64,000 nt of DNA from Escherichia coli (GTDB taxonomy: Bacteria; Pseudomonadota; Gammaproteobacteria; Enterobacterales; Enterobacteriaceae), in assembly GCF_002854065.1 (NCBI RefSeq), contig NZ_CP024147.1, one strand, 5' to 3'. The position numbers were made by a program, and so were the translations under genes. The notes beneath the pieces were generated by a model. It was not told the origin of the DNA and ran no database searches. It saw only the letters and a program-made list of their open reading frames with translations. This document shows, one piece after another, positions 3,084 through 57,707 of this stretch; position 1 is the stretch's first letter, and the number at the start of each line of letters is the position of its first letter.

Positions 3084-3629
3084 ATGCTGAAGTTACTGAA
3101 AACTATTATGCGCGCCGGAACCGCGACGGTGAAATATCCCTTCGCGCCACTGGAGGTCAGCCCAGGCTTTCGCGGGAAACCGGACCTGATGCCCAGCCAA
3201 TGTATTGCCTGCGGTGCCTGCGCCTGTGCTTGTCCGGCAAATGCGCTGACTATCCAGACCGACGACCAGCAAAATTCGCGCACCTGGCAGCTCTATCTGG
3301 GGCGTTGTATTTACTGCGGACGTTGTGAAGAAGTGTGCCCGACCAGAGCCATCCAGCTTACCAATAACTTTGAACTGACCGTCACCAATAAAGCCGATCT
3401 CTATACCCGCGCGACGTTCCATCTACAACGTTGCAGCCGTTGCGAACGCCCGTTTGCCCCGCAAAAAACCGTCGCACTGGCTGCTGAATTGTTGGCACAG
3501 CAACAAAATGCGCCACAAAACCGCGAAATGTTGCGGGCGCAAGCGAGCGTCTGCCCGGAGTGCAAACAACGCGCGACGCTGATCAACGACGATACAGATG
3601 TACCGCTGGTGGCTAAGGAGCAGCTATGA
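3084..3629 (+). CDS. hyfH: Hydrogenase-4 ferredoxin-type subunit HyfH (2x[4Fe-4S])
   Basis: 181 aa with two CxxCxxCxxxCP motifs; SD AAGGA upstream. Confidence 0.9.
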
Positions 3630-54769: not shown

Positions 54770-55615
54770 ATGTCCACGACATGGTTTGTAGGAGCCGACT
54801 GGCTCGCCGAACATATTGATGACCCGGAAATTCAGATTATCGATGCCCGCATGGCGTCGCCTGGACAGGAAGATCGTAACGTTGCTCAGGAGTATCTGAA
54901 TGGACATATTCCCGGCGCAGTGTTTTTTGATATCGAAGCGCTTTCTGATCACACTTCCCTGCTTCCGCACATGCTGCCGCGCCCGGAAACGTTCGCCGTG
55001 GCGATGCGTGAATTAGGCGTTAACCAGGATAAGCACCTGATTGTCTATGACGAAGGTAATCTTTTCTCAGCCCCACGAGCATGGTGGATGCTGCGCACCT
55101 TTGGTGTAGAGAAAGTGTCGATTCTGGGGGGTGGACTTGCAGGCTGGCAGCGCGATGATCTGTTGTTAGAAGAAGGTGCAGTAGAGCTGCCGGAAGGAGA
55201 GTTTAACGCCGCGTTTAATCCTGAAGCAGTGGTGAAAGTAACCGATGTGTTATTGGCAAGCCATGAAAATACGGCGCAAATTATTGATGCCCGCCCGGCT
55301 GCACGTTTTAACGCAGAAGTTGATGAACCTCGCCCAGGTTTACGTCGCGGACATATTCCCGGTGCATTGAACGTTCCGTGGACGGAACTGGTGCGCGAAG
55401 GCGAACTAAAAACGACCGATGAACTGGATGCGATATTTTTTGGTCGCGGCGTCAGCTATGACAAACCGATTATCGTCAGCTGCGGCTCTGGTGTAACAGC
55501 AGCCGTGGTTTTGTTGGCACTCGCGACGCTGGATGTGCCAAACGTGAAACTGTACGACGGCGCATGGAGTGAATGGGGCGCGCGGGCAGATTTACCGGTT
55601 GAGCCATTGAAATAA
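54770..55615 (+). CDS. sseA: 3-mercaptopyruvate sulfurtransferase SseA (tandem rhodanese domains)
   Basis: 281 aa from MSTTWFVGADWLAEH...; active-site CGSGVTA. Confidence 0.9.
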   Translation: MSTTWFVGADWLAEHIDDPEIQIIDARMASPGQEDRNVAQEYLNGHIPGAVFFDIEALSDHTSLLPHMLPRPETFAVAMRELGVNQDKHLIVYDEGNLFSAPRAWWMLRTFGVEKVSILGGGLAGWQRDDLLLEEGAVELPEGEFNAAFNPEAVVKVTDVLLASHENTAQIIDARPAARFNAEVDEPRPGLRRGHIPGALNVPWTELVREGELKTTDELDAIFFGRGVSYDKPIIVSCGSGVTAAVVLLALATLDVPNVKLYDGAWSEWGARADLPVEPLK

Positions 55616-55631
55616 GCTTTTTACAGGCAAT

Positions 55632-55660
55632 AAAAAACCGCCGAATTTGGCGGTTTTTTA
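55632..55660. terminator. Bidirectional Rho-independent terminator (sseA on + strand; candidate antisense sRNA on - strand)
   Basis: AAAAAA-CCGCC-gaattt-GGCGG-TTTTTT, with runs on both sides. Confidence 0.75.
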
Positions 55661-55731
55661 TTGCTGGTCTGGTTCGCGGCCTTTCCAGCAGGTTGACTTG
55701 TGTTGCCGGAGCAACGCAGGCACCCCACAGT
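55635..55731 (-). ncRNA. Candidate divergent antisense sRNA, copy 1 (RyfB/TimR-like)
   Basis: TTGACA -35 on the - strand (55761-55766) with a weak -10; predicted 5' end falls on a 16 nt core (55717-55732) whose complement matches the ryfA-like 5' region (55879-55894); bounded by the bidirectional terminator. Confidence 0.35.
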
Positions 55732-55812
55732 GTTGAAATACTCTCTTTTATGCCTGGCTGTGTCAAGATAATAAACAGAGTAATTATTCAAACATGAGAG
55801 TATTATTCTTAA

Positions 55813-56116
55813 TGGCCCTTTTCGCCGTCTCGCAAACGGGCGCTGGCTTTAGGAAAGGATGTTCCATGACCGTAAATACAGGCACCCCACAGTGCTTGCT
55901 ATCGCGGCAATATCGCCAGTGGTGCTGTCGTGATGCGGTCTTCGCATGGACCGCACAATGAAGATACGGTGCTTCTGTATCGTACTTATTGTTTCTGGTG
56001 CGCTGTTAACCGAGGTAAATAATAACCTGAGTCTCTCCGGCAACAATTTACTGGTGGTTAACAACCTTCAGAACAGCAGGTAAGCCCGAATGCCGCCCTT
56101 TGGGGCGGCATATTTA
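55813..56116 (+). ncRNA. ryfA: ryfA-like transcript, copy 1 (putative type I toxin mRNA)
   Basis: TATTAT -10-like box at 55801-55806; strong hairpin terminator GCCGCCC-ttt-GGGGCGGC plus T run at 56092-56116; span about 304 nt. Confidence 0.5.
55958..56083 (+). CDS. Small hydrophobic protein (41 aa, MKIRCFCIVLIVSGALLTEVNNN...), candidate type I toxin (TimP-like), copy 1
   Basis: ATG overlaps by ATGA the stop of an upstream 31-codon ORF (55866..55961) that has an ideal SD (AGGAAAGG, 7 nt spacing); N-terminal 17-residue hydrophobic segment; stop 8 nt before the terminator hairpin. Confidence 0.45.
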   Translation: MKIRCFCIVLIVSGALLTEVNNNLSLSGNNLLVVNNLQNSR

Positions 56117-56314
56117 GATTATCCGATTCTGTTTAAAGTCACGCAAAAAACCACCCCAGCGACGTTCATAGAATGGCGCAATATGTTCGATATTAAAATG
56201 ACCTGGCTTATTAGTCCGAATTCAGACAAATATAAACAAATCCCGCTCAATATTAAAAATACTAACCGGTAAAAGATATTACTTAAACATGTAAATTCAC
56301 TTTCTTTAAGCAAC

Positions 56315-56345
56315 AAAAAACCGCCAAAATCAGGCGGTTATTTGT
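56315..56345. terminator. Bidirectional hairpin terminator, copy 2 of the repeat unit
   Basis: AAAAAA-CCGCC-aaaatca-GGCGG-TTATTTGTT. Confidence 0.6.
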
Positions 56346-56414
56346 TGCCGGTTTGGTTCGCGGCCTCTCCAGCAGATTGACTTGTGTTGCATGAGCAACG
56401 CAGGTGCTTCACAG
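56318..56414 (-). ncRNA. Candidate divergent antisense sRNA, copy 2 (RyfB/TimR-like)
   Basis: Conserved TTGACA -35 on the - strand (56445-56450), AATATT -10-like box about 18 bp downstream; 5' core 56401-56415 matches 56560-56574 in the copy-2 ryfA-like 5' region. Confidence 0.35.
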
Positions 56415-56494
56415 CAGAGCAATATTCGCCAGCAACTCTCTTTTTGTCAAGCAAAAGAGAGTAATTATTGTTTATTTAGCGTATTATCGACACC

Positions 56495-56798
56495 GGCCCT
56501 TTCCGCCGTCTCGCAAACGGGCGCTGGCTTTAGGAAAGGATGTTCCGTGGCCGTAAATGCAGGTGTTTCACAGCGCTTGCTATCGCGGCAATATCGCCAG
56601 TGGTGCTGTCGTGATGCGGTCTTCGCATGGACCGCACAATGAAGATACGGTGCTTTTGTATCGTACTTATTGTTTCTGGTGCGCTGTTAACCGAGGTAAA
56701 TAATAACCTGAGTCTCTCCGGCAACAATTTACTGGTGGTTAACAACCTTCAGAACAGCAGGTAAGCCCGAATGCCGCCCTTTGGGGCGGCATATTTTA
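56495..56798 (+). ncRNA. ryfA: ryfA-like transcript, copy 2
   Basis: Same architecture as copy 1; terminator hairpin 56773-56790 with a T run overlapping the sseB stop codon. Confidence 0.5.
56639..56764 (+). CDS. Small hydrophobic protein (41 aa), candidate type I toxin, copy 2
   Basis: Identical protein to copy 1 (single synonymous difference TTC to TTT); preceded by a GTG-initiated 31-codon ORF (56547..56642) with the same SD and ATGA overlap. Confidence 0.45.
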   Translation: MKIRCFCIVLIVSGALLTEVNNNLSLSGNNLLVVNNLQNSR

Positions 56799-57572
56799 GA
56801 TTATCCGGTTCTGTTTAAAGTCACGCAAAAAACCACCCCAACGACGTTCATAGAATGGCGCAATATGTTCGGTAATAAAGTGGCTAATTCCTTTTTCCCC
56901 TTTTTTCACCTGACAAATATCGATTGGTTCATCGCCAGGTAATGTATCGGTCGCTACACTTCCCGCCGCCTGAATAATTTCTTCGATATCACCATCGGCT
57001 TCAATGCCAATAAGTAAATTAGGCTGTGCCTCTTCGTTCTCTTTAATTGAACATATAAAAGCACGCTTCACCGGCTTAATAGTTTTAAATAAGGTGGTGA
57101 GTGAATCAATCATTTGTGCTGGCGGCTCTGCGACTTCCGATAATATTAGCGATTCACCGCCTTCCAGTACTTCCTGGCTACTCAGCGGATTCCCTTCTTC
57201 ACCAATCAACAAACTGATTTCACGCGGCATAAATTCTTTACCGGTTGGCAGTTTGGCATTAAGGAAGAGCGTTTCGCCAAGGGTCATCTCAAACAATGTG
57301 CGAACGGGCATTACTACAAATGCCTGTTCGTCTTCAACCGCCTGTTGAAGTGCTTCTAACGAGGTAAAAAAAGGAATGACGCTGGTGCCGTCTTCTTTTT
57401 CCCAATGCTGTAAATCAAGCGCACTATCTTCAACCACAGCCTCGCCCTGCGCCGCCGTACCAGGCACCCAGACGGTGGATCCCAGTAGAGTACGGAAAAA
57501 GGCCGGGCGGTGCGCCGGTTCGGTTGCTGCTTTTTCCAGCAGGTCTTCAAGTTCGTTTTTTGTTTCGGACAT
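56796..57572 (-). CDS. sseB: Protein SseB (enhancer of serine sensitivity)
   Basis: 258 aa from MSETKNELEDL... Confidence 0.9.
   Translation of the reverse strand: MSETKNELEDLLEKAATEPAHRPAFFRTLLGSTVWVPGTAAQGEAVVEDSALDLQHWEKEDGTSVIPFFTSLEALQQAVEDEQAFVVMPVRTLFEMTLGETLFLNAKLPTGKEFMPREISLLIGEEGNPLSSQEVLEGGESLILSEVAEPPAQMIDSLTTLFKTIKPVKRAFICSIKENEEAQPNLLIGIEADGDIEEIIQAAGSVATDTLPGDEPIDICQVKKGEKGISHFITEHIAPFYERRWGGFLRDFKQNRII

Positions 57573-57608: not shown

Positions 57609-57707
<99 letters not shown>

Follow-up and report, generated by a model that had tools for sequence, protein, structure and literature searches.

The interval between sseA and sseB in the Escherichia coli DNA analysed here (a single stretch of 64 000 nucleotides, hereafter the window, whose numbering is used unless another locus is named) is occupied by two tandem ryfA/timP units, separated by a fragment of sseB and an AT-rich junction (Table 1). 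ryfA encodes the small toxin TimP, which is repressed by the divergent sRNA TimR, the two forming a type I toxin-antitoxin system (PMC7667032). A tandem pair of 'sibling sRNAs', ryfA1 and ryfA2, with divergent ryfB1 and ryfB2, has been described in Shigella dysenteriae (Fris 2017, PMC5333039); it resembles the arrangement in the window in lying in the sseA-sseB interval, in having two ryfA copies in tandem, and in carrying CACCC in the first copy and TGTTT in the second. Over 1.6 kb there is 100% identity between the window and the urinary isolate E. coli EC1515 (NZ_CP021844.1; window coordinate = locus coordinate + 53949), in whose record PGAP places, after sseA, a timP gene, an incomplete sseB pseudogene, another timP, sseB and pepB. 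Between sseB and pepB, at 57624-57686, the window also contains an imperfect inverted repeat of REP/BIME-like appearance, with 29-nt arms and a 5-nt spacer.

Table 1. Features of the sseA-sseB interval, in window coordinates.
Feature	Coordinates	Strand	Basis and remarks
sseA (3-mercaptopyruvate sulfurtransferase), left flank of the array	54770-55615	+	PGAP of NZ_CP021844.1; ORF
Unit 1 upstream segment (putative timR/ryfB1 side), class alpha	55627-55811	-	100% identical to the O157:H7 single copy
Hairpin after sseA, left edge of unit 1	55632-55660		Inverted repeat; homologous to hairpin 56319-56339
ryfA copy 1 (ryfA1-like, variable region CACCC)	55812-56116	+	Rfam RF00126, 315.7 bits; PGAP timP
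Terminator hairpin of ryfA copy 1	56090-56111		Identical to 56771-56792
Relic, truncated sseB 3' fragment	56114-56197	-	Repeats, alignments, BLAST; PGAP pseudogene 56114-56200
Rfam IS128 RNA match (K-12 candidate sRNA)	56147-56357	+	RF00125, 227 bits (gathering score 80), full length 1-209
Junction filler, AT-rich, found at this locus only	56198-56287		No significant similarity to sseB or sseA
Weak homologue of 55605-55626 (sseA stop region and spacer)	56288-56309		In register, offset 683
Unit 2 upstream segment (putative ryfB2/timR side), class beta	56310-56492	-	Includes hairpin 56319-56339
ryfA copy 2 (ryfA2 type, variable region TGTTT)	56493-56797	+	Rfam RF00126, 313.8 bits; PGAP
sseB, functional; last 84 nt parental to the relic	56796-57572	-	PGAP; ORF; 99% identity to SseB of other Escherichia

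Both ryfA copies match RF00126 at full length (gathering score 80) and both contain an intact timP reading frame (55958-56083 in copy 1, 56639-56764 in copy 2), the two coding sequences having the identical product WP_001491247.1. The second copy of the terminator hairpin, at 56771-56792, sits between ryfA copy 2 and sseB. The hairpin that follows sseA is preceded by an A-run and followed by a T-run, and is likely to act as a bidirectional terminator for sseA and for a divergent RNA of the timR/ryfB type. That antitoxin RNA is putative for both copies: no Rfam model matched an antitoxin RNA upstream of either ryfA in the window, and its position is taken from the divergent placement of ryfB1/TimR upstream of ryfA in the published systems (Fris 2017, PMC5333039; Andresen 2020, PMC7667032).

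An earlier note on this DNA had proposed that the first unit ends in a degenerate relic of sseB, 56113-56205 matching the 3' coding end of the gene, and that the duplicated block had included the last 90 bp or so of sseB. The match itself is confirmed. The 90-nt string on which the proposal was based is located at 56114-56203, and ungapped comparison with 56796-56887 gives 83/92 identities, with the mismatches past position 76 all bunched at the distal end. An independent repeat search of the window pairs 56113-56200 with 56795-56882 at 94%, and BLAST of the relic against the true sseB 3' end gives 94.25% over 87 nt (82/87 identities, E ~1e-33), which is far beyond chance. A gapped alignment of 55627-56200 with 56310-56882 runs unbroken from the ryfA core through the terminator hairpin and into the sseB tail, and the relic is in register with the repeat of approximately 682 bp. 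The similarity passes the terminator hairpin and extends for 84 nt, from the stop codon into coding sequence, so that the pairwise alignment leaves no room for the view that it stops at the terminator. The limits originally given can be sharpened at both ends. The relic starts at 56114; at offset 682, 20-mers match at 20/20 and 17/20 positions as far as about 56199 and drop to background past it, at 6-9/20 (background mean 5.1), and in a comparison of six relic copies from five genomes homology ceases after ...GGTAATAAA, between 56197 and 56198 and not at 56205. The length of sseB carried in the block, about 84-90 nt, is in agreement with the earlier estimate.

The segment 56114-56197 on the minus strand is a truncated, non-coding copy of the 3' end of sseB, its parent segment being sseB 56796-56879, that is, the stop codon plus 27 codons. 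Similarity, orientation and register all agree with an sseB pseudogene at the boundary of a duplication. Translation of the relic in the sseB frame gives ...HFNIEHIAPFYERRWGGFLRDFKQNRII before the stop codon, the counterpart in SseB being ...HFITEHIAPFYERRWGGFLRDFKQNRII. It has no start codon, the sseB frame is closed by stops just upstream in the window, and the window ORF list contains no ORF of 20 or more amino acids in that frame. The first three bases of the relic (the TTA of the stop codon) lie inside the Rfam ryfA match and in the T-rich tract after the hairpin; thus a few nucleotides of sseB would be needed for a complete 3' end of ryfA1.

It should be noted that the relic is already known, in that RefSeq/PGAP flags an sseB pseudogene here. 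CDH89_RS28480 of NZ_CP021844.1 is the same feature (window 56114-56200, minus strand) and is labelled 'enhanced serine sensitivity protein SseB; incomplete; partial in the middle of a contig'; the same sseB pseudogene label appears in five further multi-unit E. coli loci (L084, L085, L088, L089, where it occurs twice, and L090). The label is automatic, and is silent on the repeat, on the common breakpoint and on the link with IS128. What is added here is modest: the relic serves as a marker of a timP-timR array of single origin and variable copy number, and the K-12 IS128 region is re-read as a scar of that array.

Beyond the breakpoint lies a filler of some 87-90 nt (56198-56287) that has no detectable relative in the continuation of sseB, in the end of sseA or in the loci fetched for comparison. 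Continuation of the relic into sseB at low identity was considered and rejected (local alignment score 9.0, shuffle mean 8.9, p=0.49), as was the comparison of an 87-nt version of the junction with the sseB continuation (p=0.15); the sole word common to the two, GACAAATAT, is displaced from the register by 5 nt. Derivation of the junction from a degenerate sseA 3' end was likewise rejected (p=1.0), only the last 22 nt or so being weakly similar in register. In that final piece 56288-56309 matches 55605-55626 with 12-13/20 identities at offset 683, the 99.9th percentile of the background being 12, and it is probably the left end of the duplicated segment. A sensitive blastn search of 5426 complete E. 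coli genomes found the junction at a second locus in none of them; blastn gave no match in 80 loci from other Enterobacteriaceae, and nhmmer with an eight-sequence junction profile did no better than E = 0.1 among loci of other species, and that in the wrong orientation. The joint is therefore not that of a clean head-to-tail tandem duplication, as about 87 nt without detectable homology (56198-56287) intervene; either the module was not cleanly duplicated in tandem at the outset or the joint has since been rewritten. The E. whittamii locus (L006) has an insert of approximately 178 nt (3256-3436) separating the stop codon of sseB from the ryfA terminator, and parts of this insert recur in several loci. 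This extra sequence was considered as a relative of the junction and proved to be REP-like and unrelated. Within the junction, at 56229-56256 on the minus strand, there is a match to the sigma-70 consensus (TTAATA-16-TATATT, 9/12) directed towards the relic; this candidate promoter is a consensus match only.

The structure of the joint was compared in five further multi-unit genomes, three with two units each (L084, L085 and L090), one with a scar plus two units (L088) and one with three (L089, E. coli PapM-32-1). In the last, the three-unit timP array occupies 809-2655 and includes two sseB relics, one of them frameshifted. The breakpoint is identical in the window, in L084, L090 and L088 and in both relics of L089: in all six copies ...GGTAATAAA is followed directly by A..ACCTGGCTTATTAGTCC..., and the same junction comes next. 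The sequence past the breakpoint can be written A(T/C)(G/A)ACCTGGCTTATTAGTCCGAATTC... for every relic compared, and the junction of about 110 nt is 92-100% identical among multi-unit genomes. The joint arose once, since every multi-unit genome inspected has the same breakpoint and the same junction, and the uniqueness of the joint shows that a single founding event lies behind every multi-copy ryfA/timP locus in E. coli. To this extent the suggestion that the relic fixes the end point of the duplication was correct: it marks the right-hand end, and independent lineages have it at the same position. The joint of the S. dysenteriae pair we assume to be the same as that of the window.

The junction is present in 2241 of the 5426 complete E. 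coli genomes, always at the sseA-sseB locus, and a contiguous relic plus junction in 156. The latter count comes from a 101-nt query spanning the relic/junction breakpoint; a 271-nt query joined the junction to the downstream true sseB. The relic has thus been lost from about 2085 of the 2241 junction-bearing genomes. About seven genomes contain two junctions, and copy number ranges from one to three units. Neither a second copy nor the junction occurs in the outgroups (E. whittamii, cryptic Escherichia, Salmonella, Citrobacter and others), in a sample that is thin among the closest relatives: E. fergusonii, E. marmotae and the E. coli species representative are not among the loci, and the E. 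albertii locus ends 74 nt past sseB. Single-copy O157:H7 and B2 strains could be ancestral and not collapsed arrays.

K-12 and O157:H7 sseB are identical over the 112 nt compared, including the 84 nt that correspond to the relic. Relative to the E. coli sseB consensus, the window relic has two private changes in 84 nt (97.6% identity), A at 56190 and T at 56193; both are non-synonymous in the sseB frame, both occur also in relic 2 of L089, and both are absent from every true sseB examined. Relative to the sseB of its own strain there are five differences, two of which, 56808 G and 56841 A, belong to the functional gene and not to the relic. The word 'degenerate' used previously therefore overstates the case, as only 2/84 positions have relic-specific changes and two of the five differences lie in the allele of the functional gene. 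The relics of L084 and L090 have a G>A change at position 65 that is otherwise found only in the functional sseB of L084, L088 and L090, and an A/G polymorphism at position 13 is common to relics and true sseB genes. This sharing of sites between paralogues, which involves few SNPs in 84 nt of five multi-unit genomes, suggests that gene conversion or unequal exchange with sseB keeps the relic near-identical to it.

The upstream segments of window units 1 and 2, on the timR side, are by contrast only 71.5% identical, and there are at least three timR-side classes, mutually 66-80% identical (window 55627-55811 and 56310-56492; L003, L005, L006, L084 and L087-L089). Class alpha comprises window unit 1, O157:H7, L089 unit 1 and, at 95%, cryptic Escherichia (L005); class beta comprises window unit 2, L089 unit 3 and L084 unit 2; class gamma comprises K-12, the B2 strain MS7163, L084 unit 1, L089 unit 2, L088 unit 3 and, at 85-90%, E. 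whittamii. Divergence of this order is far above the level usual within E. coli, and suggests old alleles of the antitoxin region that have been balanced or exchanged. The order of the units is alpha-beta in the window, gamma-beta in L084, alpha-gamma-beta in L089 and beta'-gamma in L088, and in K-12 a beta-like remnant is followed by gamma. Window unit 1 agrees with L089 unit 1 at 78/79 informative sites as far as 55893 and mostly with L089 unit 2 from 56008; judged by these sites, it is a recombinant mosaic. The switch between 55893 and 56008 is the pattern that would be expected of unequal crossover in the conserved ryfA core.

The earlier note had gone on to claim that the relic fixes the direction of the duplication, the sseB-proximal copy 2 being the template-like one. 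The data give this no support, in view of the filler of about 87 nt at the joint, the old allele classes and the mosaic unit 1. A tandem duplication has no template: unit 1 keeps the left context (sseA) and unit 2 the right (sseB). Nor can any copy be called the template when the order of units is shuffled among strains. Where comparison is possible, the upstream segment of outgroup single copies (L005, Salmonella, Citrobacter) is nearer to unit 1 than to unit 2.

The K-12 locus, usually regarded as having a single ryfA, can be understood in the same terms. In BW25113 (L002), sseA is followed by nucleotides 1 to about 200 of unit 1 (the left hairpin, the timR side and the first few nucleotides of ryfA), then by a relic tail of 13-17 nt (GTTCGGTAATAAA), the junction and a complete unit adjoining sseB. 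At the joint of the scar ...CCGCCGT runs directly into GTTCGGTAATAAAATAACC..., some 355 bp having been deleted, and with them almost the whole of ryfA copy 1 and the greater part of the relic. Since the unit 1 remnant, the relic tail and the junction are all retained, K-12 descends from the two-unit state, and its 'single' ryfA locus is, to judge by what it retains, a collapsed two-unit array. The remnant (L002 1678-2002) includes the ryfA promoter region, and an orphan antitoxin copy of the timR/ryfB type may be present next to sseA in K-12. A second type of scar, at 547-636 of L086 and 1291-1380 of L088, has nearly all of unit 1 replaced by an orphan sequence of about 90 nt, for which there was no match in the window or in the 90 fetched loci.

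The deletion scar bears on IS128, a candidate sRNA of K-12. In K-12 the Rfam match (L002 1842-2050, 261 bits) coincides with the scar, and in the window the match takes in 51 nt at the distal end of the relic together with the junction and the unit 2 hairpin. The two differ at the 5' end, which in K-12 is unit 1 remnant fused to 13-17 nt of relic and in the window overlies the relic. The K-12 IS128 'sRNA' is thus best read as a deletion scar. Strand-specific Northern probes did not detect IS128, whereas the antisense ECS011/IS129 was detected (PMC3175480), and the patchy distribution of IS128 has been attributed to secondary loss (PMC3318445); both observations fit the scar of a variable array.

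Taken together, the observations are very probably best explained by an old timP-timR duplication of single origin, of which the relic is the right-hand breakpoint and which has since become an unstable array. The ryfA/timP-timR module would have been duplicated between sseA and sseB in a founding event that left one joint, giving a repeat unit composed of the left hairpin, the timR side, ryfA/timP, the terminator, 84 nt of sseB and a junction of about 90-110 nt. From then on the locus would have existed as a small, unstable array of one to three units, which may expand, contract and reshuffle by unequal homologous recombination in the ryfA core and the sseB tail. Internal deletions would leave scars, the 'IS128' region of K-12 being one example, and gene conversion with the real sseB tail would hold the relic nearly identical to it. 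The most likely role of the relic would be no more than that of 3' flank to the ryfA1 terminator and of extra homology for recombination between units. Alpha and gamma timR-side classes have counterparts in the cryptic Escherichia clade and in E. whittamii, and a bolder version of this account, to which we give an even chance, would make the sseB tail and junction the constant 'linker' of a recombining array of one to three units, in which old cross-species alleles are shuffled into any order by unequal crossover, most single-copy E. coli loci (K-12 with its IS128 'sRNA' among them) are collapsed arrays, and conversion returns variation to the 3' end of the functional sseB.

Two other histories have to be weighed against the old duplication. 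It might be supposed that a recent, simple head-to-tail duplication took place, copy 2 templating leftward, with copy 1 and its sseB tail having decayed since; after all, the relic is truncated and differs from its own sseB at 5/87 positions, and copy 2 directly adjoins intact sseB. The same joint, however, is present in 2241 genomes, which belong to several lineages and include K-12, so that the event was neither recent nor lineage-specific. Unit 1 is not a decayed unit 2, since the timR sides are only 71.5% identical and that of unit 1 is 100% identical to O157:H7 and 95% to a cryptic outgroup; moreover, the true sseB accounts for two of the five differences, as derived or allelic states, and 87 nt of filler stand at the joint. 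Such a history is already largely refuted, and we regard it as very improbable. Alternatively, the relic might owe its identity to sseB to a recent import of unit 1, with a piece of the sseB tail, from an O157-like single-copy donor into an existing array. The region 55450-56200 is 98.7% identical to, and colinear with, sseA-ryfA-sseB of O157:H7, and the relic has A (56126) and G (56159), the states of O157 and K-12 sseB and not of its own. Yet 56190A and 56193T, which L089 relic 2 shares, would have no source in any true sseB examined, unit 1 from 56008 onwards matches L089 unit 2 and not an O157-type unit, and the SNP that the L084 and L090 relics share with their own sseB needs exchange within a genome. 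An import is therefore unlikely, if somewhat less so than a recent duplication.

A different question is whether the relic has a function, as the 5' part of an IS128 sRNA, as an antisense RNA or other regulator acting on sseB mRNA, or as a small-peptide gene. The Rfam match to IS128 (RF00125, 56147-56357, 227 bits) begins within it, its sequence is highly conserved, and read-through of the ryfA1 terminator on the plus strand would give an RNA complementary to the 3' end of sseB, near-perfectly over 87 nt. However, the IS128 model was built on K-12, in which 13-17 nt of relic are left, and the relic is not the conserved part of IS128, which strand-specific Northern analysis in any case failed to detect (PMC3175480). 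Some 2085 of the 2241 junction-bearing genomes do without the relic, the sseB frame contains no ORF, and the two relic-specific changes are non-synonymous in that frame. A functional relic therefore seems most improbable. No evidence of function was found for a segment that has no ORF and has been lost from most genomes descended from the duplicated state; the relic is a by-product of the old duplication, real but ordinary.

In itself the relic is of little importance; its value is as a marker. If the junction is followed as a trace of the founding event, 41% of complete genomes, K-12 and BL21 among them, had an ancestor with the duplicated locus, which is a caution for studies that take K-12 as a 'single-copy' reference. 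This bears on the reading of the ryfA1/ryfA2 'sibling sRNA' story. Fris and colleagues (PMC5333039) proposed that ryfA2 is the ancient form, which was duplicated to give ryfA1; their paper mentions neither sseB (0 occurrences) nor a relic or junction, and two recent papers on timP/RyfA contain nothing on copies or sseB. In contrast to that proposal, K-12, the supposed carrier of a single ryfA2, reads as a collapsed array, and it is the ryfA1-type upstream sequence that is nearest to several outgroups. The published idea of an ancestral ryfA2 and a pathogen-specific gain of ryfA1 thus sits poorly with these data.

Tandem chromosomal type I toxin-antitoxin loci are familiar in E. coli, in the form of the LDR (ldr-rdl) repeats, the Sib/QUAD repeats and the zorO-orzO pair. 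By description, the timP array is like these in consisting of a toxin mRNA and a divergent or antisense sRNA arranged in tandem, and also in its strain-variable copy number and divergent antitoxin-recognition regions. It is unlike them in that its unit includes part of a neighbouring housekeeping gene, a fragment that both dates and marks the joint.
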